The notes beneath the pieces are model-generated. The model was not told the origin of the DNA and made no database searches. It worked only from the letters and a program-made list of their open reading frames with translations. Position numbers and translations under genes: made by a program. A stretch of 64,000 nt of DNA, from positions 34,038 through 98,037 of the forward strand of contig JBAZOT010000002.1 of assembly GCA_041648575.1 (NCBI GenBank). The letters are read 5' to 3'. Positions 2,566-48,503 of the stretch are shown here, piece by piece (position 1 is the first letter of the stretch; each line of letters starts with the position of its first letter). The DNA is from Patescibacteria group bacterium. Its GTDB lineage: Bacteria > Patescibacteriota > Patescibacteriia > Veblenbacterales > UBA10138.

Positions 2566-4257
2566 TTATTTTATTAAAACCATTTTTTTTGTTTCGCAGT
2601 AGCTACCAGCAGTCAAGCGGTAAAAATACATACCACTTGGATTATTGCCAGCGTTCCATTCCACTGAGTGCTTACCCTGTTCTTTTGTTTCATTCACTAG
2701 CGTCGCCACTTCCTGCCCCAGCAGATTGTATACTTTGAGTGTTACGAGACTGCCGCGCTCACTGCGTTCGCTCGCAGTGACATTGTTGTCATTGCGAGGC
2801 ATAGCCGAAGCAATCTCATACTTAATCGTTGTCACCGGATTAAACGGATTCGGATAGTTTTGTTCCAACTGAAACGCAATTGGGATCCCGAGCACTGTCG
2901 AGGGGTCTTGCTCACCATCTGGTGGCGGCGGCGGTAATTCGTCTATATCCACGATATTAATTCGTGAGTATGAGGCTTTCGTCAGCAATGGTATGTTTAG
3001 ATACAGTGTGCCTGCCTCGTTCACTTTGATCCAATATCCATTGCCAGGCCTCAGAGTGTCTTCTGGTAAATAACTTCCATTATAGCCAAAGAATTGGCTT
3101 GTTATCATACCAGGATCTACTAATATATCCGCGCAAGCAATTGGTTCAGTCAGCGAACCAATCATATTCCAGCCTTCAGTTACTGAAATGGTGTTATTAG
3201 TAACAGGTTCACCGTTGATAATAACACTTTGGTCTTCACTGAACTTTAACCAGTAGCCAATTCCACATTTAAGCGTGTCAACATCAACATAATTACCATT
3301 GTAAGCATAGGCAGAAGATATAGCAGTGGGAAAGAGAGAATTTAAGGACATATTATCTGCCTGTCTGGCTATCGATATCATATTCCACCCTTTTTTTACG
3401 GGGTAGTATTCTGCGTTTGGCGAATATTCACCAAAATTTATTCCAGCCCAATGCAGTGTATCACCAATCGTAATAGTTGTTTCGGGAGTAGTGGCTATCC
3501 AACCACCGGCTTTAGTTTCTGGTTTTACAGTATATATTCCTCGTGGAACAGCTAGAAGGGCATAGTTACCTAAGGCATTGGTAGTAGTTGAATCTTGATG
3601 CGTACCGTTAGCATCTAAATATATCTTCCAGTTACTCATACCGTTTTCGCCACTATCAATTATGCTGTTTTGATTTGCGTCATTGAATAATACGCCAGAA
3701 ATAGTGCCTTTTTCACCACCATCATAAAATAAGATTTGTGATACTCCTTGTCCACTAGTAAAATGATCAAAATCACCAATGACAGCACCAAGAACTGACC
3801 ATGGCACATAACATATAATTAACGAAATAGAATCGAAATATGCAAGTGTACCATTCCATGGCCCCAGAAAATCTGTTGTTTGCCAACTAGTATCTCCTGC
3901 TATTCCATCAGCACTCAGAGGATAGACTGTAGTGTCCCCATGGTGTAGAGAAAACGAGAATATATAGATAACACCAGGATGACTCTGATAACCTCGTTGG
4001 TCAATATGAATAAATCCATTAAATGGTGTTAAATCTACTCTTCTTCCATATATCACACTATCTGACAATTGATCACCATTTGCTTCAATCCGTATTGCCC
4101 AGCCAGATCCTCTGCTTCCACCTTGGTGAGTATATATAGAGTCATACATAGTTGAAAGAACACGATTCCATCCATCATTATTTTGCGCATAAACAGCAAT
4201 GGTAAACACCATCGCTATTAATATCGCGATTGCAATATATAAATTTTTAAGTTTCAT
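2566..4257 (-). CDS. Secreted protein with signal peptide and T9SS-type (Por_Secre_tail-like) C-terminal sorting domain carrying an in-frame repeat-derived insertion
   Basis: N-terminal hydrophobic signal (MKLKNLYIAIAILIAMVFTIAVYA). The C-terminus reads NYPNPFNPVTTIKYEI...LVTLKVYNLLGQEVATLVNE...GMYFYRLTAG...KKMVLIK, which is typical of a T9SS C-terminal domain. A 21-aa insert (ASAMPRNDNNVTASERSERGS) is encoded by a palindromic repeat. Confidence 0.7.
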   Translation of the reverse strand: MKLKNLYIAIAILIAMVFTIAVYAQNNDGWNRVLSTMYDSIYTHQGGSRGSGWAIRIEANGDQLSDSVIYGRRVDLTPFNGFIHIDQRGYQSHPGVIYIFSFSLHHGDTTVYPLSADGIAGDTSWQTTDFLGPWNGTLAYFDSISLIICYVPWSVLGAVIGDFDHFTSGQGVSQILFYDGGEKGTISGVLFNDANQNSIIDSGENGMSNWKIYLDANGTHQDSTTTNALGNYALLAVPRGIYTVKPETKAGGWIATTPETTITIGDTLHWAGINFGEYSPNAEYYPVKKGWNMISIARQADNMSLNSLFPTAISSAYAYNGNYVDVDTLKCGIGYWLKFSEDQSVIINGEPVTNNTISVTEGWNMIGSLTEPIACADILVDPGMITSQFFGYNGSYLPEDTLRPGNGYWIKVNEAGTLYLNIPLLTKASYSRINIVDIDELPPPPPDGEQDPSTVLGIPIAFQLEQNYPNPFNPVTTIKYEIASAMPRNDNNVTASERSERGSLVTLKVYNLLGQEVATLVNETKEQGKHSVEWNAGNNPSGMYFYRLTAGSYCETKKMVLIK

Positions 4258-8054: not shown

Positions 8055-8396
8055 TTATGAATCTAATGTAAGTAACTGCTTAATCTGTGCTTTGAACTCA
8101 GGTAGACTGATGGTGACTGTATCCCACACGATAGCCAAGTCTATACCAAAGTAGTGGTGGATGAGAATATTTCGTGTGGCCATAGCCTTGTCCCAAGCAA
8201 TGTGGGGGTGTTGAGCTTTGAATCCTTCGGGAAGATTTTTGACGGCCTCCCCCATAATCTCTAACCTTCTCATAATGGCGTCCTGCTTCTCGGGAGACTT
8301 GAGCCAAGCTTCTTCGGAAAGGCCGCGCGCATACTCCTCAATAGCAGCAATACTTTCCATAATATGTTTCAAAAATATCTGATGGTCGTTTTTCAT
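8055..8396 (-). CDS. hepT: HepT-like toxin (DUF86, nucleotidyltransferase-substrate-binding/HEPN RNase) with Rx4HxY motif (RNILIHHY)
   Basis: 113 aa with an RNxxxHxY HEPN motif. Overlaps the upstream MNT gene by 4 nt (ATGA). Local GC is higher than the surroundings. Confidence 0.8.
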   Translation of the reverse strand: MKNDHQIFLKHIMESIAAIEEYARGLSEEAWLKSPEKQDAIMRRLEIMGEAVKNLPEGFKAQHPHIAWDKAMATRNILIHHYFGIDLAIVWDTVTISLPEFKAQIKQLLTLDS

Positions 8397-8686
8397 AAAA
8401 TGCGCACTTGCTCTGTTAAGATGCGATCTTTGAGAAGTGGGTGTAGCGAGCGGTAGGTGACGACATCGATGTTTTTACCGAGCGCTTGCTCCAACTTTAG
8501 TTGCAAGTCGGCCAGATCAAACAGGCTGGTGCCCCGCGGCACCTCAATCAGGAAATCAATATCACTGCCCTCGCCCCCCTCGCCTCGCACATAAGAACCA
8601 AACAGCGAGGAGCGGATAACGCCCGCCTGCCGCAAGATGGGCAGGGCAGTATGTTTAATGGCTTCGATGGTGTAGGAACGAGGCAT
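8393..8686 (-). CDS. mnt: MNT-type nucleotidyltransferase antitoxin (GSxxRG...SDIDxL motif)
   Basis: GSYVRGEGGEGSDIDFLI minimal nucleotidyltransferase motif. 97 aa, immediately upstream of hepT with a 4-nt overlap. Confidence 0.8.
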   Translation of the reverse strand: MPRSYTIEAIKHTALPILRQAGVIRSSLFGSYVRGEGGEGSDIDFLIEVPRGTSLFDLADLQLKLEQALGKNIDVVTYRSLHPLLKDRILTEQVRIL

Positions 8687-26217: not shown

Positions 26218-26778
26218 ATGCTTAACGATTCTGATATTCAACTTATAACCAATTATTTAAAAAAAGATGATAAATCTTTAGAGATTTTGGTCAACCGCTA
26301 TTTAAAACCAATTTATGGCTTTGTTTATAGATTTACCAATAATCTTCAAGACACCGATGATATAACTCAAGAAGTTTTTGTAAAGATCTGGAAGAATTTA
26401 AAAAAATTTGACCAAACCAAAAATTTCAAAACCTGGCTTTTTACTATAGCCAAAAACACTGCCATTGACTGGCTGCGCCGTCACCAAGACATTTTATTCT
26501 CGGAATTAATAAAAACAGAAGACGGAGAAAGTTTAGAAGATAATATTATTGATGACGCTCCCCTGCCTTCAGAAATTTTTGAACACCAACATCTGGCCCA
26601 AGAGCTTAATTCAGCGGTGCATAAACTACCTGCTATTTATCAAACTGTCTTATCTTTATACTATCAGGAGGGGTTTACTTTTCAAGAAATTTCTGAAATC
26701 TTAGAAAAATCTGTAAATACTGTCAAAAGCCGGCACTGGCGGGCAATTAAAGCCTTGCGAAAAGAGATGCTTATCTAA
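26218..26778 (+). CDS. RNA polymerase sigma factor, ECF (sigma-70 family) type
   Basis: Region 2 (…DDITQEVFVKIWKNLKKFD…) and region 4 HTH (…FQEISEILEKSVNTVKSRHWRAIKALR…). Confidence 0.85.
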   Translation: MLNDSDIQLITNYLKKDDKSLEILVNRYLKPIYGFVYRFTNNLQDTDDITQEVFVKIWKNLKKFDQTKNFKTWLFTIAKNTAIDWLRRHQDILFSELIKTEDGESLEDNIIDDAPLPSEIFEHQHLAQELNSAVHKLPAIYQTVLSLYYQEGFTFQEISEILEKSVNTVKSRHWRAIKALRKEMLI

Positions 26779-26846
26779 AACGCACCCAAATCAGCAATCT
26801 ATACGTATTAATAAATAGAAGGACTTTTCTATTTATTTTTATACAT

Positions 26847-27269
26847 ATGCATCAAGATTACCATAAATTACTTAATTTGCTTGATTCCCCCCAACCCCCA
26901 GAAAATTTATTTAATCTAATACTAAAAAGGGTAGAATTAGAAAAACAACGAACTAAAGCTAAAATTAGATTAGTAATTTTTTCAGTTACTACTGTTATAT
27001 CGCTAGTAGCTTTAATCATAACTTATCAAATTACTAGTTCACATCTATACCAATCTGGTTTTGCTGAAACTTTTTCCTTAATCTTCTCTGATTGGCAGTA
27101 CCTTAGCGGTTATTGGCAGAACTTTACAATGTTTTTATTAGAATCATTACCCGTTACCAGTTTGATTATGTTATTGGTTTCCATGCTATTATTCATCAAT
27201 TCAATTAAAGTTTTAATCAAAAATATAAAATTATCGTTAATACCTTTTAATCATAATTTAGGAGTATAA
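26847..27269 (+). CDS. Putative membrane anti-sigma factor, cognate to the upstream ECF sigma
   Basis: Small protein immediately downstream of the ECF sigma. Cytoplasmic N-terminus followed by TM helices. Assignment is by position and topology only. Confidence 0.35.
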   Translation: MHQDYHKLLNLLDSPQPPENLFNLILKRVELEKQRTKAKIRLVIFSVTTVISLVALIITYQITSSHLYQSGFAETFSLIFSDWQYLSGYWQNFTMFLLESLPVTSLIMLLVSMLLFINSIKVLIKNIKLSLIPFNHNLGV

Positions 27270-27273
27270 ATTT

Positions 27274-27756
27274 ATGGAAATTACCAAATTTTTACAATCA
27301 AAAATATTTCTTACCACTACTTGGATAATTGGCATCATTATTATCTTACTTTGTGTTTTTCAGGTTGGGGTTATGGTAGGCGCTAGAAAAGCCGGCTTTA
27401 CTTATCGCTGGGGAGAAAATTATCACCGTAATTTTGCCGGTCCCCGTAGCGGCTTTCCTTTGCCTGGTTTAGATGACCGAGATTTTATTGAAGCTAATGG
27501 TATAATTGGACAAATCATTAAGCTAGATTCTAACTCTTTGATTATCAAGGGGCGAGATAATGTGGAAAGGGTTGTATTAGTTAATGATCAAACCAATATT
27601 CTACGCTTTAAAGATGAAATTAACTACTCTGACTTAAAAATTGATGATTTTGTCGTGATCATTGGCGAACCTAATGATACTGGCCAAATTGAAGCTAAGT
27701 TTATTAGAATAATGCCACAGCCACCTTTAAGCAATCTACGTTCAAAAATGATGTAA
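27274..27756 (+). CDS. Small membrane-anchored extracytoplasmic protein; paralogous to 31563..32024
   Basis: N-terminal TM. C-terminal domain shares the pattern I.G.I…D..SL.IK.RD…V…DLKI(D/G)D…G…G.I.A…I with the 153-aa protein on the other side of the transporter. Confidence 0.35.
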   Translation: MEITKFLQSKIFLTTTWIIGIIIILLCVFQVGVMVGARKAGFTYRWGENYHRNFAGPRSGFPLPGLDDRDFIEANGIIGQIIKLDSNSLIIKGRDNVERVVLVNDQTNILRFKDEINYSDLKIDDFVVIIGEPNDTGQIEAKFIRIMPQPPLSNLRSKMM

Positions 27757-27778
27757 TAATAAATAACCTATTTCTTTT

Positions 27779-29596
27779 ATGTTTAAGAAAATTTGGAACT
27801 TTATCATAACTAAAAAATTTACCACTGGTATAATTGTTTTATTATTAATAGGCGGTGGCTATTGGGGAATTAAACATTTTACTAACACTGTTGAGCAAAC
27901 AAGCTATATTCTGGGCCAAGTGGTCAAAGGCACTATTATTACTTCGGTTTCTGGCACTGGTCAGGTTGCTGCTTCTAGCCAGGTAGATATAAAACCAAAA
28001 ATTTCAGGAGAGATTGACGCTATTTATATTAAAAAAAATCAAGAAATTAAAACGGGTCAACTACTAGCTAAAATAAATACTAGCGACGCGCAACGGGCAG
28101 TACGTGATGCAGAGATAAATCTAGAAACTGCACAAGTTCAACTAGAAGAATTACTAAAACCGGCTGACGAATTAACAATCCTGCAAGCAGAAAACGCGGT
28201 AGTTAAAGCAAAAGATTCAAAACAAAAAGCCGAAGATAATATTATTCAGGGCTATGAAGATGCTTTTAATGCTGTTACTGACACGTTTTTTGACTTACCA
28301 ACAATCATGACTGGAGTGAACGATGTTTTATATAGTTACAACATTGCTAAAAGTGAAGTCACTATTGATAACAATATATGGAATGTATCAGCTCTAAAAA
28401 ATAATATTAAATATGACGACTTACCAGAACTAGAAAAATTTATAAACTCTGCAGAAAGTAATTACAAAATAGCTAGAGAAAAATACGATGTGAATTTTCA
28501 AAATTATCGAGACAGTAGTCGTTATTCTGAATACAGCGTTACTGAAACGTTATTAGAAGAAACCCTAGAAACTCTTAGAGCAATGGCAGAGGTTATAAAA
28601 AGTGAGGTTAACTTTTTTGATTATTGGGTTGACAGTCGAACCAAATACGATTATCCAATTTTTAGTAAAGTTACTCAATATCAGTCAGATTTAAAATCAT
28701 ATACTTCAAAAACCAACGGCTATCTGACAAGTCTGTTAAGTATTGAACAATCATTTCAAGATAACAGACAAGCTGTAGTGGATGCTGAATATTCAATAAA
28801 AGAAAAAGAGTTATTACTTACTGATTTAAAAGAAGGTGCAACTGATCTTGATATTAGAACTCAAAAAATAGCGATTGAACAAAAACAAGCAAGCTTAGAT
28901 GCTGCTAAAAGCACTACAGCTGATTGCTATATTTATGCTCCTTTTGATGGCGTCATTGCTGTAAAAAATGATGACATTAAAAAAGGAGATTCAGTCTCTC
29001 CCAGCACAGTTTTAGGATCTTTGATTACTAAACAGCATCTGGCGGAAATTACCTTAAACGAATTAGATGTGGCAAAGGTCAAGGTCGAACAAAAAGCCAA
29101 TTTAACTTTTGATGCTATAGAAAATTTGACAGTAACCGGAGAAGTGGCTGATATTGATTCAATTGGCACCGTTAGCCAGGGGGTGGTTACTTATAATGTT
29201 AAAATTGTTTTTGCCACCCAAGAAGACCAAGTTAAATCAGGCATGACTGTATCCGCTTCTATTATTACTGATGTTAAACAGGATGTGCTGTTGGTTCCCA
29301 ATTCTGCTGTTAAATCTGCCAATGGTAATTACTACGTGGAAATGCCGGATGAAGATGTAAGTAATAGCCAATCTGCCAGTACCACCGGCGGTATTTATTT
29401 ACAGAATCCACCTAAAAGACAAACAATTGAAATTGATTTGGCTAATGATACTAGTACCGAGGTAACTAATGGTCTACAACAAGCTGACCAGGTTATAATA
29501 CGAATTGTTAGTTCAACTACCTCCACGACTACCACATCATCGAATCAAGGAAATATATTTACAACCGGAGCCAGTGGACTACGCCCCAGAGACTAA
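27779..29596 (+). CDS. HlyD/MacA-family periplasmic adaptor (membrane fusion protein) with long coiled-coil
   Basis: N-terminal TM. Biotinyl/lipoyl-like hairpin (…ISGEIDAIYIKKNQEIKTGQLLAKIN…). Extended alpha-helical middle and C-terminal beta domain. Confidence 0.7.
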   Translation: MFKKIWNFIITKKFTTGIIVLLLIGGGYWGIKHFTNTVEQTSYILGQVVKGTIITSVSGTGQVAASSQVDIKPKISGEIDAIYIKKNQEIKTGQLLAKINTSDAQRAVRDAEINLETAQVQLEELLKPADELTILQAENAVVKAKDSKQKAEDNIIQGYEDAFNAVTDTFFDLPTIMTGVNDVLYSYNIAKSEVTIDNNIWNVSALKNNIKYDDLPELEKFINSAESNYKIAREKYDVNFQNYRDSSRYSEYSVTETLLEETLETLRAMAEVIKSEVNFFDYWVDSRTKYDYPIFSKVTQYQSDLKSYTSKTNGYLTSLLSIEQSFQDNRQAVVDAEYSIKEKELLLTDLKEGATDLDIRTQKIAIEQKQASLDAAKSTTADCYIYAPFDGVIAVKNDDIKKGDSVSPSTVLGSLITKQHLAEITLNELDVAKVKVEQKANLTFDAIENLTVTGEVADIDSIGTVSQGVVTYNVKIVFATQEDQVKSGMTVSASIITDVKQDVLLVPNSAVKSANGNYYVEMPDEDVSNSQSASTTGGIYLQNPPKRQTIEIDLANDTSTEVTNGLQQADQVIIRIVSSTTSTTTTSSNQGNIFTTGASGLRPRD

Positions 29597-29605
29597 AGTG
29601 GCTTT

Positions 29606-30298
29606 ATGATTGAATGCAAAAATATCAGCAAGGCATACAATACTGGGATCGTGGAAACTATTGTTTTAAAAAATATCTCCTTAACTATTGATGATGGCGA
29701 ATTCGTAGCAATCATTGGCCCCTCTGGTTCAGGTAAATCAACTTTAATGCATATTATCGGCGCTCTGGATACACCAACCAAAGGCGAGTATTTGTTCGAT
29801 GGTAAAAATGTTTCTGAATTAACTGAAGACGAGTTAGCTGAAATTAGAAATAATAAAATTGGTTTTGTTTTTCAATCATTTAATTTACTTCCCCGCACTA
29901 CTGTTCTTCGCAATGTCACTATTCCCCTAATCTATAGCAACATCGCTAAAGAAGAAAGGGAAACAAGGGTAAAAAAAGCTCTGCTTAGTGTAGGTTTGGA
30001 AGAATCACATTTTCATCATTTATCAAATCAACTATCAGGCGGACAAATGCAAAGAGTGGCTATTGCCAGAGCTTTAGTTAATAATCCTTCGTTAATTTTA
30101 GCTGATGAACCAACGGGTAACTTAGATACCAAAACCGGAGAATTGGTCTTGGCAACCTTTAAAAAATTAAACGAGAAGCAACACCATACTATTATTCTTA
30201 TTACGCATGAACATGATGTAGCTATGCATGCCAAACGCGTTATTCATATACGTGATGGCGAAATTGTAGAGGATATTAAAAACCACAGCATTATCTAA
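29606..30298 (+). CDS. ABC transporter ATP-binding protein (MacB/LolD-type)
   Basis: Walker A GPSGSGKST, signature LSGGQMQRVAIARAL, Walker B ILADEPTGNLD. Confidence 0.9.
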   Translation: MIECKNISKAYNTGIVETIVLKNISLTIDDGEFVAIIGPSGSGKSTLMHIIGALDTPTKGEYLFDGKNVSELTEDELAEIRNNKIGFVFQSFNLLPRTTVLRNVTIPLIYSNIAKEERETRVKKALLSVGLEESHFHHLSNQLSGGQMQRVAIARALVNNPSLILADEPTGNLDTKTGELVLATFKKLNEKQHHTIILITHEHDVAMHAKRVIHIRDGEIVEDIKNHSII

Positions 30299-30307
30299 TA
30301 ATGATTT

Positions 30308-31531
30308 ATGAAAACTGCAGATTTATTTGAAGAAACATTTATTGCCCTACTAACTAATAAAGCACGATCAGGATTAACTATTTTAGGTATAGTTATCGGC
30401 ATTAGTTCGGTAATTGCCATGGTAGCGGTGGGTCAGGGTGCTACTGGTTCTATAGAATCAAATATACAGTCGCTGGGTTCTAACTTAATAACTATTAGAC
30501 CAGGTTTTCAACGAGGAGCAGGATATCAGGTAAGTTCTGGTCGGGGCTCAGCCCAATCATTAACTTTGGAAGATGCTAACGCTATTCAACAAGAAATATT
30601 TTTAGTCAAAGCAGTGGCCCCTGAAGTTTCCGGACGATATCAAATTACTGCCAAAGGAACTAACACCAATACTACAGTTACTGGCACCACGGAAAGTTAT
30701 CTGGATATTAGAAATATACAAATTGACCAAGGTGATTTTATCACTGAACAAAATATTAAAAGTGTAAACAAAGTAGCGGTTTTAGGATCAACAACTAGAG
30801 ATGATTTGTTTGGAGAAAATACTGAAGTGGTTGGCCAAACTATCAGAATTAAAGGAATTGAATTTAAAGTAGTAGGAGTAACTGCAACTAAAGGCGGTAC
30901 GGGTTTTGGTAGCCAAGATGACATGGTTTATATTCCTCTTTCCTCTGCTCAACGCTTTTTATCTGGCAGTCAATATTTAAATACCCTTAATGTACAGGCG
31001 GTGGATCAAAATTCCATGACTTTAGCTCAGGAACAAATTACCTCTTTATTACTAGCCCGTCATAATATTACCGACCCACAAAACGCCGATTTTAGTATTA
31101 TGAACCAAGCTGACTTGGCTTCTAGCGCCTCTTCTATTACCCAAACCCTAACTATGTTGCTGGCTGCTATTGCTGGTATCTCTTTAATAGTTGGCGGCAT
31201 CGGCATCATGAATATGATGTTAACTACGGTAACGGAAAGAACCAAAGAAATTGGCTTACGCAAAGCAATCGGCGCCAAAAAAGCAGACATCAACAAACAA
31301 TTTTTAACCGAAGCCATCACCTTAACTTTTACTGGCGGCGTAGTTGGTATAATTTTGGGCTGGTTAATTTCTTTGGTCATACAAAATCTGGCAGGTATAG
31401 CCACCACGGTATCACTACAATCAATTTTATTGGCTTTTGGTGTGGCAACTGTCATTGGTGTAGTGTTTGGTTATTACCCCGCCCGTCGCGCCGCCAACCT
31501 TAACCCGATTGAAGCTTTACGTTACGAATAA
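30308..31531 (+). CDS. ABC transporter permease, FtsX/MacB-type with large extracytoplasmic domain
   Basis: TM1, a ~220-aa periplasmic domain, then three C-terminal TM helices. Typical MacB/FtsX-like architecture. Confidence 0.8.
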   Translation: MKTADLFEETFIALLTNKARSGLTILGIVIGISSVIAMVAVGQGATGSIESNIQSLGSNLITIRPGFQRGAGYQVSSGRGSAQSLTLEDANAIQQEIFLVKAVAPEVSGRYQITAKGTNTNTTVTGTTESYLDIRNIQIDQGDFITEQNIKSVNKVAVLGSTTRDDLFGENTEVVGQTIRIKGIEFKVVGVTATKGGTGFGSQDDMVYIPLSSAQRFLSGSQYLNTLNVQAVDQNSMTLAQEQITSLLLARHNITDPQNADFSIMNQADLASSASSITQTLTMLLAAIAGISLIVGGIGIMNMMLTTVTERTKEIGLRKAIGAKKADINKQFLTEAITLTFTGGVVGIILGWLISLVIQNLAGIATTVSLQSILLAFGVATVIGVVFGYYPARRAANLNPIEALRYE

Positions 31532-33824: not shown

Positions 33825-34202
33825 ATGGAAGTTTGGGTATTTGGCAATCCAGATTTGGCCCAAGATGCTTTACCAATTAAATTATTGCCTGAATTAAAAA
33901 AACAATTTCCTAAAATAACTTTCGTGGTAAAAGATCCTAATGAGGAGTGGCTGTTACCAAAAAAACTTTATATTATAGATACAGTTCAGGACCTGAATCA
34001 GGTCAAAGTATTTACTTCTTTAGATTATTTTACCAAACAGCCAGCTATTACTATGCATGATTTTGATTTGGGAACGCAATTACAATTTTTAAAAAAACTA
34101 GAACAGTTGCCGCCCTTGGTAATTTTTGGTATTCCCATGAATATCTCGACAGCTGATGTGCTGCGTGAGCTGCTACCTAAGTTGCGTCAATATTTAGTTT
34201 AA
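33825..34202 (+). CDS. Putative hydrogenase maturation endopeptidase (HycI/HoxW-like)
   Basis: 125 aa. N-terminal (V)FGNPDLAQD… and mid-protein MHDFDLG resemble the conserved acidic and His metal-binding positions of hydrogenase maturation proteases. It converges on and overlaps the [NiFe] large-subunit gene. Confidence 0.45.
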   Translation: MEVWVFGNPDLAQDALPIKLLPELKKQFPKITFVVKDPNEEWLLPKKLYIIDTVQDLNQVKVFTSLDYFTKQPAITMHDFDLGTQLQFLKKLEQLPPLVIFGIPMNISTADVLRELLPKLRQYLV

Positions 34203-35490
34203 GAAAATGTGATGCACAGCTCATGCACGGATCATAAGCTCTAATTAATTTTTCTAATTCTTGCTGCAATTCGTCAGCTGATGGATTGGTAGGTAACAAT
34301 TCTTCCACTAATCTGGCCATGTCTTGCTCAATATTAATTTGGTTCTGGCCAGTAGGCACCACGATTTCACCTTCGGTTACTACACCTTGTTTATCTATTA
34401 TCACTTTGTGATACAAAGTACCGCGTGGCGCTTCAATCACACCAATCCCCACCCCTTCAATCTGCGTTGGAGGTACTGGTTGTTCTTGATTAAACGAGTA
34501 ATTTTCAAGAATTTCTACAGAGTGGTCAAGGCAATGCAAAATTTCAATAGCTTGAGCTAAATTATTATCAAAAATATTAGTAGAAGGAAAACGTTTTAAC
34601 ACCTCTGTTAAACTTGCTTTAGTCTTAGTGTGTAAACTGTCTTTAGCTAAATTTATACGCGCCAAGGCACCTACCATATAAGTTTCTCCAGAAAAAGTAT
34701 AACCCGAAGCTTGAGAATAAGGTATTACTTTATGCTGCAGATGATTATGAAAATCCGCTTCCTCGATACTGTCGCCTTTGTCGCTGATTATTTTTCCTTC
34801 CAAATAACTAAAAGGGTTGGCGACCAAAGCCATAAAATGCGTTTGACGGTCAAAAGAAAATTTACAGTTAGCAAATCGCTCAACTGTGCGCAAAACCGCT
34901 GATCGTGCAGCTGTTAATTTTTTTATAGCTTGCTTTATTTCTTCGGCTGTAGGAATTTTTAGCCAACCGCCAATAGCGGGATTAACGGCGTGGACACTGC
35001 GTCCGGCAATAATTATAGAAAGATAATTGCCAGCGGCTTTGATTTCAAAAGCATCATGCAATATTTGATGTTGTTCTGGATCGTTTTCATCTAATGACAG
35101 AAAAGAATCTTTACCATACATATCAGGCATGACAAATAAATACAAATGCAAAGCATGATCGCGAATATTCAAGCCGTACATGGTTAATTTTTTCATTAAT
35201 TGGGTTTGCTGCGACGGCTTAATTCCCAATGCATGCTCGCAAGCTTCAATACTGCATAACAAATGAGCATTAGAACAAGTACCACAAATGCGCGCCAATA
35301 AAGCCGGCAAAGTTTTATACGGTTTGCCGCGCATGGCCTGAGTATAAAAACGCTTGTATTCAGTAATACCAAAACGGCAATGTTCTATTTTTCCCTTGGT
35401 TATTTTAATATCCAAAACAGCCGAGCCTTCTACTTTGGTTAATTCTTTGTTTAAAGTAAGATCAACCTGGTGCATATCACTCGGTAACAA
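34177..35490 (-). CDS. [NiFe]-hydrogenase large subunit (cytosolic group 3-like)
   Basis: N-terminal Ni-binding motif RICGTCS and C-terminal DPCMSCASH (DPCxxCxxH). 437 aa. Confidence 0.85.
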   Translation of the reverse strand: MLPSDMHQVDLTLNKELTKVEGSAVLDIKITKGKIEHCRFGITEYKRFYTQAMRGKPYKTLPALLARICGTCSNAHLLCSIEACEHALGIKPSQQTQLMKKLTMYGLNIRDHALHLYLFVMPDMYGKDSFLSLDENDPEQHQILHDAFEIKAAGNYLSIIIAGRSVHAVNPAIGGWLKIPTAEEIKQAIKKLTAARSAVLRTVERFANCKFSFDRQTHFMALVANPFSYLEGKIISDKGDSIEEADFHNHLQHKVIPYSQASGYTFSGETYMVGALARINLAKDSLHTKTKASLTEVLKRFPSTNIFDNNLAQAIEILHCLDHSVEILENYSFNQEQPVPPTQIEGVGIGVIEAPRGTLYHKVIIDKQGVVTEGEIVVPTGQNQINIEQDMARLVEELLPTNPSADELQQELEKLIRAYDPCMSCASHFLKLNIDAT

Positions 35491-35992
35491 TATTAAATTC
35501 TTTAAGCATTTGATTTAAAACTTGTAAAAATTTTTTCTCGTCCATAGGACAACCGGGCACTTGGGCATCAACTGTTATAACATCAGATAATTTTTGAACA
35601 TGATCCATATAGGAAAAACGAGATAAAATATGCTCAATTTCTTCTAAACGTTCTGGGTCAAATTTATTGCGCTGAGCCGAGGGCAGACCCATTACCGCGC
35701 AGGCACCGATGGCTACAATTTTTTTTGATTTTCTTCTAATCTCTTTGATTTTTTCCACGTGTTCAGGCGAAGCCAACGCACCTTCTACAAAAGCTACATC
35801 TAATTCATCAAGTACATTTTTAGACTGCAGCACGCGAGCATAGCGAATATCCAACAATTTTTTCCATTCTTGCCAATGATCGTTTAACAACTCAGTAAAC
35901 AAAACAGTGCTATCTTCGCAACAGCTAAAAGTAAACCAGCCAATGCGTAGCTTCTTAGTTGTTATTTTGCCCGTTGATATTTTATCTGACAT
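35477..35992 (-). CDS. [NiFe]-hydrogenase small subunit (NuoB-like, proximal-cluster only)
   Basis: CC…GxCxxxG…GCPP pattern (FSCCED…IGACAVMG…VPGCPMD). Overlaps the large-subunit gene by 14 nt. Confidence 0.75.
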   Translation of the reverse strand: MSDKISTGKITTKKLRIGWFTFSCCEDSTVLFTELLNDHWQEWKKLLDIRYARVLQSKNVLDELDVAFVEGALASPEHVEKIKEIRRKSKKIVAIGACAVMGLPSAQRNKFDPERLEEIEHILSRFSYMDHVQKLSDVITVDAQVPGCPMDEKKFLQVLNQMLKEFNIVTE

Positions 35993-43884: not shown

Positions 43885-44448
43885 ATGTCTATACTACCTT
43901 CATTAAATTCCATAAAAATCGGTTTAAATATTTTAGTTAACAATGAGCCTTATCAAGTACTAGAGGCTTCGTTTATGCGCACGGCTCAAAGAAAACCAGT
44001 AATGCGAACTAAATTAAGAAACCTGCTTAATGGCAAAGTGTTAGAACAATCATTTAAACCGGGTGATAAAGTGGAACAAGCCGATATGTCTAAAATCAAG
44101 GCCAATTTTCTTTATGCGGATAATCAATGCCATTTTATGAATCAGGAGACCTTTGAACAATTTGATTTTCCTATAGAAAAAATTAACGAGGGTGTTAAGT
44201 TTTTAAAAGAAGGTTTAGAAGTAAGTATTCTTAATTTTAACAGCGAGCCAGTAGGCGTGGAATTACCGAAGAAAGTAATCTTAAAAGTAACTGAAAGCCC
44301 GCCTGGGGTAAAAGGCGATACTGCTGGCAATGTAACCAAACAAATTACTTTGGAAACTGGGCTACAAGTAAACGCTCCCCTTTTTATTAAAGAAGGCGAG
44401 GAAGTAATTATCAACACCGATACCGGCCAATACGTAGAACGGGCTTAA
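43885..44448 (+). CDS. efp: Elongation factor P
   Basis: 187 aa. EF-P N-terminal KOW-like region (…RKPVMRTKLRNLLNGKV…) and OB domains. Confidence 0.88.
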   Translation: MSILPSLNSIKIGLNILVNNEPYQVLEASFMRTAQRKPVMRTKLRNLLNGKVLEQSFKPGDKVEQADMSKIKANFLYADNQCHFMNQETFEQFDFPIEKINEGVKFLKEGLEVSILNFNSEPVGVELPKKVILKVTESPPGVKGDTAGNVTKQITLETGLQVNAPLFIKEGEEVIINTDTGQYVERA

Positions 44449-44449
44449 G
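44407..44449 (+). repeat. Direct repeat 1 (efp 3' terminus, encodes IINTDTGQYVERA*); pairs with 46560..46602
   Basis: 35/43 identity with a displaced copy 2.1 kb downstream that encodes IVNTETGQYVERA* and is followed by a rho-independent terminator. Confidence 0.55.
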
Positions 44450-44613
44450 ATAATTTGATTTTAACAAATCACCTCTGATGTTTTTCAACTCGGCGGCGAT
44501 TTTTGGCTGCTCCTTAGCCCCTTGCCAAAAACCTTGACAAGATTAGAGCCAAAGCTTAAGATAATCACAAACTAAACTAATTCAAAATTGTTCAATAAAA
44601 ATAGGAGTTTATC

Positions 44614-45291
44614 ATGTCATTTGTAACTTATTTACTTGTGCTTGGGGCAGTGTCGGCCATTGTCTGGCCTATCTCTTGGTTTATTTTCAGGTGGAAAAAG
44701 ATCTGCGCGCCGGGATTTCGTGGTTTTTTCATGTGGCCTGCAACTTGGTTTGTACTTTATTTGACTAACTGGGCTTGGTTAATTGATGTGCCTGGGGCTA
44801 ATACAATGCTAGTTGAAAACGGAAAAATTGTCCGAGTCTTTCCGGAATCAATTATTATGTGGCAAGGCGCTATTAATATAGATAGCTTGGTTTCCTACGC
44901 TGCTTTTACAAAAGCTATTGAGCTGACCCTACCATTTGATCAATCTCTGGTGTTAAAGGGCCAAGCTATGGACGCAGAGTTGGATACGCTCGCGAAAAAA
45001 GTAACCTGGCGATTATTTTTGACAATCGGCGGCTCGCCTGAAGAAATGCTTAAATTCAGGAAAATTATCGGAATTCCAGGAGATAGTCTGGCAATAGTAG
45101 CGTATATTATGGGCCCTCTAAAGAATGGGATTAACTACGATCGCGAGAAATTGTTAACTGCGTACGATTTATTTTACGAAGAAAATAATGAACTACCTTG
45201 TTATGAACTAGTAAAATCTTATCTGTTACCAACCCTCTCTAACGCTGACATGAAACTTAAAACTGCAACGTTAAAATTTAGTTCATCATAA
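44614..45291 (+). CDS. Hypothetical membrane protein (2 N-terminal TM helices + soluble domain), cargo of the efp islet
   Basis: Strong RBS (aggagtttatcATG). Trp-rich TM segments. No known motif. Confidence 0.4.
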   Translation: MSFVTYLLVLGAVSAIVWPISWFIFRWKKICAPGFRGFFMWPATWFVLYLTNWAWLIDVPGANTMLVENGKIVRVFPESIIMWQGAINIDSLVSYAAFTKAIELTLPFDQSLVLKGQAMDAELDTLAKKVTWRLFLTIGGSPEEMLKFRKIIGIPGDSLAIVAYIMGPLKNGINYDREKLLTAYDLFYEENNELPCYELVKSYLLPTLSNADMKLKTATLKFSSS

Positions 45292-45416
45292 GATAACCAG
45301 CTAATGATAAAACCGACTGTTTAAAAACAGCAGTCGGCTCTTTTATTTTATAAAATTACTTTTCTTCGGCTCTGGCCTGCTTCATTTTTCCCCAAACCGT
45401 TTGTCTTGTTTATCCT

Positions 45417-46505
45417 CTATTTAACCGCGTAATTTTGGGCGGCAAAATTATACTGCGTGATGAATATTTTCTTAAACGGCACAATTGAATTTAATTCATA
45501 AAATACCAGCATCGCTTCACGATAATCATTTTCATCAACACTGCGATACGACAGAGGCGCCGAGCCATGCGCCAATAACAAAGCGTTGGCCATCAGTCGG
45601 CTGGTTCTTTTATTGCCATCCTCAAACGGCTGAATATAACCAATACCCAAAAGAGCAATCAACGCTTTAGCATAGGGCGTTGACATTTGTGATACAGCCG
45701 CGCCAAGATCATTAATTGCTTCAGTAATTTGATAAATATTATCTAACGGTCGGTAAACTGATCCAACTACGCCGACTGGTTTTTCACGCAAACCCAAATC
45801 CACGCTTAAATCTTTAACCAAAATAGCATGCAGTTCTTCTAAATTTGGCTGCGTAATTGTTTTAAATTGCGAAGTATATTCGCGAACAAAATTAAAAGCA
45901 TCTTTATGGTTCAAAATCATTTGTGTCTCTTGTTGTGTCTTACCGAGCGCTGCTTTGTTCTCTAGAATTAACTTTTCCGTATCCAAAAGAGTATAGGTAT
46001 TGCCCTCAATTTTTGATGACTTCCAAGACAGCTCAATAATAAGCCGCTCTAATTCTTTTCTTTGAATAGTCGTTGGTAAATCTCTTGTTCTTTTTTTATA
46101 TTCAGAGGTTGCGCTATCCAAAATTTTCAACTCATCGGTTGTAAAAATATCTGATTTTAAACCAGGCAGTAAATCAAAATTATACCGGTTTAGACCGTAA
46201 CGTTTATCTGGTTCAAGGGAACAATATTTATGGGCATCAACTTCGGCAAATATTCTGCCCAGCGAGCTTATATCATAGCTGGTGGATCGCCCAGAACCTG
46301 CCGCAACCAAAACACCAACACTCGCCATTTCGGACAAAGCTCTTTTTATTGTAACCAAAGAAATATCCTCCCCTTGTTTAACTATCTCGGCATACACGGC
46401 CGATGACTGCATTTTTCCTTTCTCAAGGATAATGGCAGTTATTTTTTGTTGTTTTGTAATTAATTTAATCATTTTCGTATCATTTATATACTTTAATCGT
46501 ATCAT
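45417..46505 (-). CDS. Fic-fold protein with N-terminal winged-helix domain and degenerate active-site motif (QPFEDGNKRTSR; catalytic His replaced by Gln)
   Basis: The Fic core pattern xPFxDGNxR is present with Gln at the His position and Lys in place of the second Gly. Inhibitory-type motif SSKIEGN upstream. N-terminal wHTH (…SLVTIKRALSEM…). Confidence 0.65.
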   Translation of the reverse strand: MIRLKYINDTKMIKLITKQQKITAIILEKGKMQSSAVYAEIVKQGEDISLVTIKRALSEMASVGVLVAAGSGRSTSYDISSLGRIFAEVDAHKYCSLEPDKRYGLNRYNFDLLPGLKSDIFTTDELKILDSATSEYKKRTRDLPTTIQRKELERLIIELSWKSSKIEGNTYTLLDTEKLILENKAALGKTQQETQMILNHKDAFNFVREYTSQFKTITQPNLEELHAILVKDLSVDLGLREKPVGVVGSVYRPLDNIYQITEAINDLGAAVSQMSTPYAKALIALLGIGYIQPFEDGNKRTSRLMANALLLAHGSAPLSYRSVDENDYREAMLVFYELNSIVPFKKIFITQYNFAAQNYAVK

Positions 46506-46559
46506 ATTGATACGATTAAAACAAAGCCTTAAAACTTAACCAAAAACGGAGAAGATATA

Positions 46560-46602
46560 ATCGTTAACACCGAAACCGGGCAGTACGTAGAACGAGCTTA
46601 AA
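46560..46602 (+). repeat. Direct repeat 2: displaced original efp 3' terminus (…IVNTETGQYVERA*), followed by terminator at 46616..46642
   Basis: In-frame remnant with TAA at 46598..46600. Hairpin agccg…cggct + TTTTTT immediately downstream. Confidence 0.55.
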
Positions 46603-46670
46603 ATTAACTAAGATAAAAGCCGCCAGATAGCGGCTTTTTTAATTCTTATGCGAAGCCAATAACAATGCGA

Positions 46671-47435
46671 TTAATTACAAACCACATTTTCTTGCGTTAC
46701 TCCAGGTACAGGGGCCTCGGGCACTAATCCTCCTCCCATAAATATAATGCCGGTCATGCCAAAGCTCTTGAAAAATTTTACACCCGGATGTGCTTGCTCG
46801 CTTTGACTATATGCCCAATCAATCAACCTTTTACTAAAGGCGCAAGTAACTGGCACCCCGTATCCAAGGGGCCCCTTAGGTCCAGACACTAAACATAAAT
46901 CACCTTGTTTACCAATAATTTTAAATTCTATAGCTGGAATTGAAGTAGGTTGAAGTGGTGGAGAGTTACCCTCAACAGGAAAGGGGGGTGCAAATTGAGC
47001 CTTTAGCAAAGCTGGATTACATGCCTGTAAATTATCAGTAAAGCACTCCCACGCTTTTATAGTTTCAACAGCAGCGTCAACTTTATTATTATCCAAAAAT
47101 CCAATAAAACCAGCAGTACCACAATTAATGGTATTTATCTGTGTGATAGCCGGCTGGTTTTGGATATTATTTAACTGGTTTACTGATCCTTGTGTTGTCG
47201 GTGCCGGCCGTAACCAATACCAATATACTGCCCCAGCCATCACCAACACGATAACAACAACTGTGGTAATTATTAATCCCTTATACTTACTGACAGAAGT
47301 GGGGCTATCTGTTTGCATCGCCGCTTTAACATCTGTAGCATCCCAACCTACATTAATCAATGCTGTATTTATTTGATCATCAGAAAGACCATTCTGACGA
47401 GCAGAGGTTATATAATCAATAAGTTTTTGATCCAT
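46671..47435 (-). CDS. Hypothetical membrane-anchored protein with Cys-containing C-terminal domain
   Basis: N-terminal soluble segment, a single TM (LIITTVVVIVLVMAGAVYWYW) and a ~170-aa extracytoplasmic domain. Confidence 0.35.
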   Translation of the reverse strand: MDQKLIDYITSARQNGLSDDQINTALINVGWDATDVKAAMQTDSPTSVSKYKGLIITTVVVIVLVMAGAVYWYWLRPAPTTQGSVNQLNNIQNQPAITQINTINCGTAGFIGFLDNNKVDAAVETIKAWECFTDNLQACNPALLKAQFAPPFPVEGNSPPLQPTSIPAIEFKIIGKQGDLCLVSGPKGPLGYGVPVTCAFSKRLIDWAYSQSEQAHPGVKFFKSFGMTGIIFMGGGLVPEAPVPGVTQENVVCN

Positions 47436-47474: not shown

Positions 47475-48503
47475 TTACTTCTCCGCCGCTCTTTGTTCTT
47501 TTACTTTCTGCCAAATTTGCTCTCCAATCTCTTTTCCAATTTTAGGATTCTCGCGTAAAAATTGTTTGGCTTGTTCACGCCCCACTCCTAATTTAGTTTC
47601 ACCAAACGATAAAGTGTTGCCGCTCTTGATTAAAATATCATATTGCATGCCCGCATCAATTAAATCACCAGCTAGGGAAATTCCTTCGTTGTACATAATA
47701 TCAAATTCCGCCACTTGAAACGGCGGCGCTACTTTATTTTTTACCACCTTAGCCCGCACACGGCTGCCTAATATTTTATCGCCTTGTTTAATCTGGCCAA
47801 TTCGCCTCACTTCTATCCGCACCGAAGAATAAAATTTTAAGGCCATACCACCGGTAGTTGTTTCAGGGTTACCAAAAAATACGCCGATTTTCATGCGCGT
47901 CTGATTTAAAAAGATTACTACAGTTTTAGATTTAGAAATAATGGCTGTTAATTTTCTTAAAGCCTGGCTCATTAACCGCGCCTGCAATCCCATATGACTA
48001 TCTCCCATATCACCTTCTATTTCCGCTTTGGGGGTAAGGGCCGCTACTGAATCAATAACAACAACATCAATGCCATTGGAACGCACCAGAGTTTCCACAA
48101 TTTCCAAAGCCTGTTCACCTGTGTCGGGTTGAGAAATTAACAAGTCATCAATTTTCACGCCAATTTTTTTAGCATAAACCGGGTCTAGAGCATGTTCGGC
48201 ATCTACAAACGCTGCCAAACCGCCTATTTTTTGCAACTCGGCAATAACATGAAGAGTTAAAGTAGTTTTGCCAGAAGCTTCAGCGCCAAAAATTTCTACC
48301 ACTCTGCCCCGTGGCACGCCCCCAACTCCCAAAGCGATATCTAAACTTAAACAACCCGTAGAAATCGCATCCACTGCCATAGCATGCGCTTCACCCAACT
48401 TCATAATTGCTCCCTCGCCAAAACGTTCTTTAATTTGCTCAACGGCTAAATCCGCAGCTTTAGCGCGTTCAGTTTTTTCTTCATTTTTATTAGCTGTCGT
48501 CAT
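47475..48503 (-). CDS. recA: Recombinase RecA
   Basis: Walker [15 protein letters not shown]1/L2 loop regions. …[14 protein letters not shown]…. Confidence 0.95.

Follow-up and report, generated by a model that had tools for sequence, protein, structure and literature searches.

A stranded efp terminus between efp and recA of a Patescibacteria bacterium as a candidate scar of integrase-free gene exchange

In a Patescibacteria group bacterium of the lineage Veblenbacterales (UBA10138; assembly GCA_041648575.1), the 3' end of efp, the gene for elongation factor P (EF-P), occurs twice: once at the end of the intact gene and again about 2.1 kb downstream, beyond a gene for a small membrane protein (TM225) and one for a Fic-domain protein (fic), on the way to recA. 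We analyzed this locus in a stretch of 64,000 nt from contig JBAZOT010000002.1 (positions 34,038 to 98,037, forward strand), referred to here as the window, in whose numbering all coordinates are given unless another locus is named. The initial annotation of the DNA between the two efp ends (the islet) had proposed a decayed or satellite-like element that entered the 3' end of efp and supplied a replacement terminus. What, then, put a second efp end there? We found that the stranded end is a real scar of foreign DNA inserted between efp and recA. We propose that it could have arisen in an integrase-free exchange hotspot between these two genes, by what may be termed 3'-terminus displacement, an import being anchored by homology at one end and joined illegitimately at the far end; on the evidence of the sequence comparisons given below, we regard this proposal as evenly balanced between being right and being wrong.

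The duplication itself is longer than had been described. Direct alignment of the two stretches gave 35 identical nucleotides out of 43 (44407-44449 vs 46560-46602), and the homology extends in frame to 60 nt, or 19 codons plus stop (44389-44448 vs 46542-46601), with 47/60 nt identical and the peptides KEGEEVIINTDTGQYVERA in the working gene (copy 1) and KNGEDIIVNTETGQYVERA in the distal end (copy 2). An independent repeat search ranked this pair first among the direct repeats found around the locus, at 44389-44451 vs 46542-46604 (63 nt, 78%). The second-best 43-mer match across both strands of the window reached 26/43, and the maximum in 200 shuffled windows was 28. A profile of 22 efp termini from Candidatus Veblenbacteria recovered 46542-46601 at E = 3e-12 and nothing else in the 52 kb of efp-recA gap DNA searched. 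The longest identical block between the copies is 11 nt (TACGTAGAACG), and the same block is the most conserved part of efp across all relatives. The assignment of the upstream gene to efp was borne out by TIGR00038 (211.8 bits vs a cutoff of 185.8, residues 7-187) and by three Pfam EF-P domains. Copy 2 cannot be translated, since the reading frame is closed immediately upstream (stop at 46530-46532) and does not reopen with a start codon; it is therefore a relic rather than a gene.

Copy 2 is not just the native terminus moved away from its gene. It is a foreign allele, of the type carried by a sister genome, L052 (GCA_043806155.1). The real EF-P of L052 ends with ...KNGEDIIVNTETGQYVERA*, exactly the peptide of the relic (100%). 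At the nucleotide level the relic matches the L052 efp end at 54 of 60 positions, with 33 of the first 36 identical, and all six differences are synonymous (P ~1e-4 if neutral). It follows that the relic acquired its differences within a functional efp, in an L052-like lineage, and that it has decayed very little since then. The window efp as a whole is far from that of L052, with a synonymous divergence (dS) of 1.81, and its terminus is of the KEGEE type common to its closest relatives (L003, L006, L063, and L064). Copy 1 switches sharply in its match to L052 efp, from 24/36 over the first stretch to 24/24 over the next and then 35/40 beyond the stop; over the last 24 nt of efp, identity among the two copies and all relatives is 20-21/24, and that stretch does not distinguish the native copy.

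A three-way alignment located the inner edge of the relic. The window tracks the region upstream of fic in L052 up to ...AACCAAAAAC, and from CAAAAAC onward it tracks the efp of L052 (ATCAAAAACGGAGAAG...). CAAAAAC (46541-46547) is a 7-nt overlap present in both inferred parent sequences. Because the junction lies on 7 nt of microhomology, we take the inner edge of the relic as the mark of illegitimate recombination, not as the arm of an attachment (att) site.

L052 carries the whole cargo of the window in the same order and orientation, and it is the only other carrier. The cargo comprises homologues of TM225 (55% amino acid identity), of Fic (88% by tblastn, 89% over the 351-aa protein), and of a third protein, P254 (72% by tblastn), whose gene lies in the window beyond the efp relic. 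L052 has no efp relic. The spacer between efp and TM225 (44447-44624) is 82-90% identical to L052, and the hairpin of terminator T1, which follows TM225, is partly conserved there. Between the two genomes dS is 1.32 for S6, 1.32 for SSB, 1.76 for S18, and 1.08 for RecA, in addition to the value for EF-P given above, and only 0.60 for TM225, 0.43 for Fic, and 0.54 for P254. All three cargo genes thus share a more recent ancestry than the host genes, which argues that the cargo was horizontally transferred. The younger DNA is not confined between the efp repeats, since P254 lies outside them and is equally young. Within recA the fraction of synonymous differences from L052 is 0.36-0.50 and falls to 0.24, the level of the cargo, in the last 38 codons (small counts), which suggests a crossover inside recA.

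In every related locus, from genomes and metagenomes, with both genes on the contig, efp and recA converge, down to 56% EF-P identity, and the synteny of the rpsF-ssb-rpsR-efp block is kept in all relatives. Among relatives in Candidatus Veblenbacteria the gap between the two genes ranges from 9 to 4183 nt. It is effectively empty in L005 (167 nt), L070 (59 nt), and L071 (9 nt), which supply the unoccupied site expected if DNA was inserted here; the refuting condition named in the initial annotation, no empty site among relatives, does not apply. Elsewhere the gap holds unrelated and patchily shared cargo, namely genes for 2-hydroxyacid dehydrogenase, ferric-reductase-like, RnfD-like, MOSC, GH1, and DUF4190 proteins. 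Because empty sites and differing cargo occur among relatives, we conclude that the efp-recA gap is an insertion hotspot. Most relatives have a hairpin terminator within 10-25 nt of the efp stop. In the window that layout follows the relic, not the working efp, and the interval from efp to TM225 contains no terminator. The terminator beyond the relic (T2, 46615-46638) had been called the only good one in the region, but a second, T1, lies at 45313-45337. Since the relic and T2 reproduce the layout found after efp in most relatives, 'efp end - T2 - P254 - recA' looks like a single, uninterrupted natural stretch of donor DNA. A recent recombination tract in common with L003, the closest efp relative, was considered separately and rejected: identity to L003 is uniform from S6 to efp (~80-85%) and random right after the stop.

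Stranded ends are not peculiar to efp. Between TM225 and fic the window holds a relic of the recA 3' terminus (45356-45397; tblastn E 2.9e-4; nhmmer profile E 0.0016 for 45357-45399). It is of the KQARAEEK type, another allele type than the end of the window's own recA, and it is 90.7% identical over 43 nt to a 28-codon recA relic of L052. Read from left to right, the ends come as efp ... recA' ... efp' ... recA (the prime marks a relic), so that the duplications of the two genes interleave. Truncated copies of a gene's own 3' end, downstream and in the same orientation, number one for efp (in the window) and, for recA, one in the window, two each in L052, L130, and L063, and a weak candidate in L006 (E 0.10, stop codon lost, missed by the profile search). 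P254 belongs to a family of three known members (window, L052, and L130), and in both L052 and L130 recA termini flank the gene on both sides. In L063, L130, and, weakly, L006, nested recA termini of different allele types lie only 12-95 nt apart. Because no gene lies between these successive termini, a mobile element does not explain them.

A scan of open reading frame (ORF) ends against downstream stop-anchored peptides covered 1.2 Mb (the window and all loci, cut-off 8/12) and returned efp in the window and in an identical contig, L001, and recA in L052; repeat or paralogue cases in L043 and L083 were set aside. efp was the sole case in the 64-kb window. As the 1.2-Mb scan gave only efp and recA, duplication of gene ends is local to this hotspot. 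The other relatives were also searched for an efp relic by peptide regular expression, tblastn, and nhmmer, and none was found. As a by-product, the scan brought up a ~900-nt tandem repeat unit with identical ORF ends at about 2944-5044 of L043.

The lack of an integrase, already remarked in the initial annotation, held when the search was widened. The islet genes have no recombinase match in Pfam, NCBIfam, PADLOC, or PHROG. Pfam calls on the genes of the window from ~3.7 to 64 kb contain no integrase, transposase, or other recombinase family, the called genes of L052 contain no recombinase, integrase, or transposase family of Pfam, and no recombinase is encoded by 20 cargo ORFs taken from 13 further gap versions. 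No tRNA or tmRNA that might be the true att site was found in 40-50 kb of the window, and an Rfam search of 43-48 kb gave nothing at E <= 0.1. A literature search on efp as an attachment gene found nothing relevant. We also rejected a phage or plasmid origin: the efp-terminus pattern is absent from IMG/VR viral contigs, the Fic relatives found there are only 26-29% identical, and the cargo has no PHROG function. The islet had been described as GC-richer than its surroundings; its GC content (0.379) equals that of the window (0.378), its GC at third codon positions lies within about 1-2 sd of other genes, and it looks rich only beside the AT-rich ribosomal-protein genes. It thus carries no compositional signal. 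A separate candidate, CCAAAAAC as an uptake or recombination signal, was rejected as not enriched (9 copies vs 5.7 +/- 2.3 expected).

Of six features of an integrative element, three were absent, namely an integrase, recurrence with the same ends or in excised form, and foreign DNA confined between the repeats; direct repeats derived from the target gene and an unoccupied target in relatives were present. For the sixth, an identical core sequence, the 11-nt block is ambiguous, as it is also the most conserved part of efp. What stands of the initial interpretation is the insertion of DNA at the efp 3' end, an efp terminus left intact, and a second terminus, with a terminator, 2.1 kb away. Its view of the islet as a decayed element bounded by att sites is put in conflict by an L052-type relic, by an L052 without a relic, by a young P254 outside the repeats, by a microhomology edge, and by an interleaved recA relic. 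Such an element is probably not the right mechanism, and the boundaries that it implies are wrong.

In the mechanism that we propose instead, the DNA between the converging efp and recA would be repeatedly replaced or extended with DNA of related lineages. The imported DNA, most plausibly taken up by natural transformation, would pair with efp or with recA through RecA-dependent homologous recombination, and the far end of the import would be joined illegitimately at a few bases of microhomology, that is, by homology-facilitated illegitimate recombination (HFIR). Where the import or its joint extended into the terminal part of either gene, one end would stay with the working gene and a second would be stranded beside older cargo; gene termini would thereby be displaced one after another. 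The last event in the window may have brought in a fragment 'efp 3' end (L052-like) - T2 - P254 - recA', anchored in recA and joined at CAAAAAC just upstream of the fic promoter. The recipient genome would already have had the arrangement efp-TM225-T1-recA relic-fic, an earlier event having stranded the recA end beside fic. We infer the direction and order of these events, the use of transformation, and that the joins were the work of the host's recombination and repair systems, not of a dedicated enzyme.

The HFIR account explains the microhomology, the natural-looking relic-T2-P254 segment, and the young P254 and recA end, as well as the lack of a recombinase and the variable-length and gene-free recA relics elsewhere. 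One joint in the window is without extended homology and lies on 7 nt of microhomology, within the 3-10 nt expected for HFIR. Natural competence and Com/RecA-dependent integration have been shown experimentally in Patescibacteria (Saccharibacteria), in a study that also reports com genes throughout much of the phylum (PMC10633639); genomic surveys report frequent gene exchange in the phylum (PMC12455944). On a wider view, the ends of efp and recA would be landing pads for integrase-free exchange, where imports anchored by homology and closed on microhomology add or swap cargo and leave a layered record of termini; we hold this generalization tentatively, at somewhat below an even chance.

Several points weigh against the HFIR account. 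The pattern of the two copies would also fit one reciprocal crossover, copy 1 being window-type and then L052-type, and copy 2 being L052-type and then followed by a relative-like terminator. HFIR does not require such a two-copy hybrid, and the mosaic of copy 1 needs a separate event. No donor with a contiguous efp end-T2-P254-recA was found among 49 genome loci, 75 metagenome loci, and the three members of the P254 family. The fall in synonymous differences at the recA end rests on small counts (9/37 codons). The Fic module, described below, has the same two end points, to within about 2 nt, in the window genome and L052, although the relics beside it differ, which hints at a discrete cassette. 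HFIR is rare in experiments, and recombination at ~80% identity is inefficient. Transformation would, moreover, be extrapolated from competence elsewhere in the phylum; recA is present in the window genome.

The strongest competitor keeps the idea of site-specific integration. An element carrying the membrane protein and Fic would have entered the 3' end of efp through an attP with an efp-like 60 nt; attL would complete efp, attR would be the stranded copy, and the integrase would have been lost or, as for a satellite, supplied in trans. The expected circle junction would run from the fic-upstream region through the efp-like 60 nt to GATAATTTG. A 60-nt direct repeat at 78% with an identical 11-nt core (TACGTAGAACG) suits such a history, and so do the copies themselves, which form a reciprocal hybrid like attL and attR: copy 1 is native-type for 36 nt, then identical to L052 for 24 nt, then 35/40 identical beyond the stop, and copy 2 starts with 36 nt of L052 type, its downstream terminator resembling those after efp in relatives. 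Empty sites in relatives and cargo younger than the host genes are also as expected, and element e14 in icd is a precedent, its att site lying at the 3' end of a protein-coding gene whose terminus the element replaces (PMC6379469). Yet ~60 kb of window, L052, and the other gap versions contain no integrase, L052 has both genes at efp without an attR, and the supposed P arm would end just where the 7-nt microhomology lies. P254 is equally young outside the repeats, viral contigs contain no efp-like segment or close Fic copy, TM225 is known from two genomes only, and the neighboring recA relics vary in length, some of them flanking no gene. An att-site element is no longer the best reading of the locus, and we consider it unlikely.

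Somewhat more doubtful still is an integrase-free insertion of the Campbell type, which we consider quite unlikely. Here a circle 'efp last 58 nt - membrane protein - T1 - recA relic - Fic - promoter' would have formed in an L052-like genome between two copies of CAAAAAC 2.2 kb apart, and would have entered the window lineage by a single crossover in the last ~25 nt of efp. The two CAAAAAC copies do exist in L052, in the right order and orientation, and the predicted circle junction is exactly window 46536-46560. One event would yield both hybrid copies, and it would account for the interleaved order efp ... recA' ... efp' ... recA. This history requires, however, that a double-stranded circle passed between lineages and that RecA made a crossover in about 24 nt of identity, and it leaves unexplained the young P254 and recA end and the gene-free nested recA relics elsewhere.

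A local tandem duplication of the efp 3' end in this lineage, followed by drift and by insertion of genes between the copies, would give a direct repeat in the same orientation and frame, as observed. The distal copy matches the allele of another species, however (54/60, and 33/36 where the copies differ most), and copy 1 is itself mosaic. Because the distal copy differs from the L052 allele only at synonymous sites, it diverged within a working gene and not as a drifting duplicate, and we hold a local duplication to be very improbable. Chance similarity, or a chimeric assembly of two strains, hardly deserves credence: the window does come from a metagenome-assembled genome, but the 35/43 match exceeds the shuffle maximum and the profile found the relic, the sequences joined at the critical junction have only 7 nt in common (far below any assembler k-mer), contig L001 (ENA, 88 kb) carries efp, cargo, and relic in identical sequence, TM225 and P254 proteins identical to those of the window are also recorded on a contig of 103,748 nt, and a separate Logan assembly reproduces efp-TM225-Fic. 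These five readings together take up most of the probability, and the remainder belongs to histories not considered.

Features of the efp-recA locus in the window and recA relics in related loci
Locus	Feature	Coordinates	Strand	Remarks
Window	efp (elongation factor P), intact, 187 aa	43885..44448	+	last gene of the rpsF-ssb-rpsR-efp block
Window	copy 1, working efp terminus (KEGEEVIINTDTGQYVERA*)	44389..44448	+	mosaic relative to L052
Window	promoter-like site TTGACA-17-TAAGAT	44534..44562	+	upstream of TM225
Window	TM225, small membrane protein, cargo gene	44614..45291	+	orphan family
Window	terminator T1, 9-bp stem then T run	45313..45337	+	between TM225 and the recA relic
Window	recA 3'-terminus relic, 13 codons + stop (VWGKMKQARAEEK*)	45356..45397	-	3' side adjoins T1, 5' side adjoins the fic 3' flank
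Window	Fic-domain cargo gene, 351 aa, N-terminal winged helix + Fic	45417..46472	-	Pfam Fic 2.6e-12
Window	palindrome AATCGTATCATATTGATACGATT upstream of fic	46495..46517	.	probable operator
Window	junction microhomology CAAAAAC, 7 nt	46541..46547	+	from the three-way alignment
Window	copy 2, stranded efp terminus (KNGEDIIVNTETGQYVERA*)	46542..46601	+	54/60 identical to the L052 efp end
Window	bidirectional terminator T2	46615..46638	.	13 nt beyond the relic stop
Window	P254, single-pass membrane protein, third cargo gene	46671..47435	-	outside the efp repeats
Window	recA, converging on efp	47475..48503	-	other conserved anchor of the hotspot
L052	two recA relics			28-codon KQARAEEK type between fic and the P254 homologue; short decayed one (~9 codons) beyond fic
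L130	recA termini on both sides of the gene for the third P254-family member, and a further decayed one; relic length 11 codons	1-207 and 970-1013
L063	two recA relics (9 and 9 codons)	3933-4088		within 160 nt of the recA stop, gene-free between
L006	one weak recA candidate, VKEQRAVEK (9 residues)	2587-2613		95 nt from the recA stop, gene-free between

The islet had been said to encode a membrane protein with two transmembrane segments and a Fic protein. Both genes were confirmed; a hydropathy scan of TM225 (threshold 1.6) gave one clear transmembrane segment (residues 1-26), and the second, aromatic-rich, is weaker. TM225 has no Pfam, NCBIfam, PADLOC, or PHROG match, and its family is known only from the window and L052 (the self match alone among 5.8 billion proteins, and a tblastn match in L052). 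A role of TM225 and P254, both orphan membrane proteins, in defense or at the surface would be a guess.

Fic is far more widespread, with >7900 homologues at 70-89% identity across Patescibacteria, in unrelated genomic contexts. Its best match among solved structures is the class II Fic AMP-transferase FICD (3e-12), and the PADLOC model of SoFic, an anti-phage system of a single gene, matches at 6e-17. Like these proteins it has a Fic domain with an inhibitory-helix motif, of class II (SxxxEG(N), here SSKIEGN). It differs from them in having Gln for the catalytic His and Lys for a Gly, a winged helix, and a palindromic operator. The Fic motif, QPFEDGNKRTSR, departs from the consensus HxFx(D/E)GNGRxxR, and in all 120 homologues fetched the catalytic His is replaced by Gln and the second Gly of the motif by Lys (QPF[EDNA]DGNKRTxR). 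The sequences point to a strongly conserved subfamily, widespread in Patescibacteria, that is probably non-AMPylating. A palindrome of the form AATCGTATCA(A/T)AT(A/T)TGATACGAT lies ~35 nt upstream of the fic start in six unrelated contexts (window, L052, L053, L131, L134, and L135), and the DNA around it is unrelated between contexts. It is probably an operator bound by the N-terminal winged-helix domain of Fic itself.

The fic gene, with a 24-nt 3' flank, its promoter, and the operator, makes up a module that spans 45393-46547 in the window and, in reverse complement, ~5976-7131 in L052. It is flanked by the recA relic and the efp relic in the window and by two recA relics in L052. The module could be a discrete cassette, and as a rarer alternative the 1.15-kb unit may represent a new kind of mobile cassette without a recombinase; by eye, its ends show only a weak GTTT..T..T similarity as terminal inverted repeats. 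In another patescibacterium, L053 (4260-6558), fic separates the sigma-70 gene from its neighbor in a sigma70-P140-P160-YknX-ABC-MacB operon, which is uninterrupted in the window (26218-31531). The idea that Fic always arrives with a gene-end duplication was rejected, as fic is located inside this operon without a duplicated sigma70 end.

Elsewhere in the window, we observed a HepT-like/MNT nucleotidyltransferase toxin-antitoxin pair (PF01934; PF01909, PF18765) at about 8055-8686 (-), by the gene calls of the matching contig, and NiFe hydrogenase genes (large and small subunit; PF00374, PF01058) at 34177-35992 (-), in a small Patescibacteria genome.

Bacteria of the Candidate Phyla Radiation have few classical mobile elements but do have genes for DNA uptake. 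The efp-recA locus offers a sequence-level example of how they may gain genes without the machinery of mobile elements. Stranded gene ends act as fossils here, in that they show both the origin of an allele and the microhomology joint. Were the proposed mechanism general, Patescibacteria would owe a main route of gene acquisition to transformation with homology-anchored illegitimate recombination, and polymorphic toxin loci would not be the only ones to show 'C-terminal displacement'. For annotation the locus is a caution: on its own, a duplicated terminus beside a conserved gene is not proof of an integrative element. The efp-recA gap is also a natural 'neutral site' usable for engineering, a parallel to the neutral site between convergent genes used in Saccharibacteria (PMC10633639).

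The locus shares traits with several known systems. Integration hotspots and flexible genomic islets hold a fixed position between core genes, contain different accessory genes in each genome, and are exchanged via homology of the flanks. In the efp-recA gap, by contrast, the ends of the flanking genes themselves are duplicated and provide a readable record of imprecise events. Elements e14 and phage 21 integrate site-specifically in icd of E. coli and bring a replacement terminus (PMC6379469; Hill et al. 1989 cited there). As in our locus, an imperfect duplication of the gene's 3' end brackets the insert, the gene remains intact, and the changes between the copies are conservative and synonymous. 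The differences are that the islet has no integrase and no phage or element genes, that its repeats do not bracket all of the young DNA, that a sister genome has the cargo without a second copy, and that the inner edge is a microhomology joint.

A parallel in layout is the C-terminal displacement, with 'orphan' 3' ends, of rhs, contact-dependent inhibition (CDI), and type VI secretion system (T6SS) loci, for which sequential displacement by HFIR has been proposed in T6SS and rhs loci (PMC5361080, citing Jackson et al. 2009 for rhs). There too a working 3' end is kept, older ends are pushed downstream in the same orientation to form layered arrays, and HFIR is proposed without an integrase. In contrast to those polymorphic toxins, the genes concerned here (efp and recA) are essential housekeeping genes, in which a displaced end and its replacement are functionally equivalent. 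The cargo has no relation to the gene, with neither toxin tip nor immunity pair, and two converging genes take part in one hotspot, with interleaved relics.

HFIR itself has been described after natural transformation in Acinetobacter, Streptococcus pneumoniae, and Pseudomonas stutzeri. It was defined experimentally in competent bacteria (PMC3240628). The likeness lies in one end placed in a conserved homologous gene and the other at a microhomology of a few bases, in the lack of a dedicated recombinase, and in inserts from tens of bases to kilobases. Our case differs in being read from comparative sequence, and donor and recipient, at ~80% identity, are more divergent than in most experiments. 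It differs also in the place of the far joint, which is located within the 3' terminus of another housekeeping gene, an in-frame relic of that gene's end being left behind.

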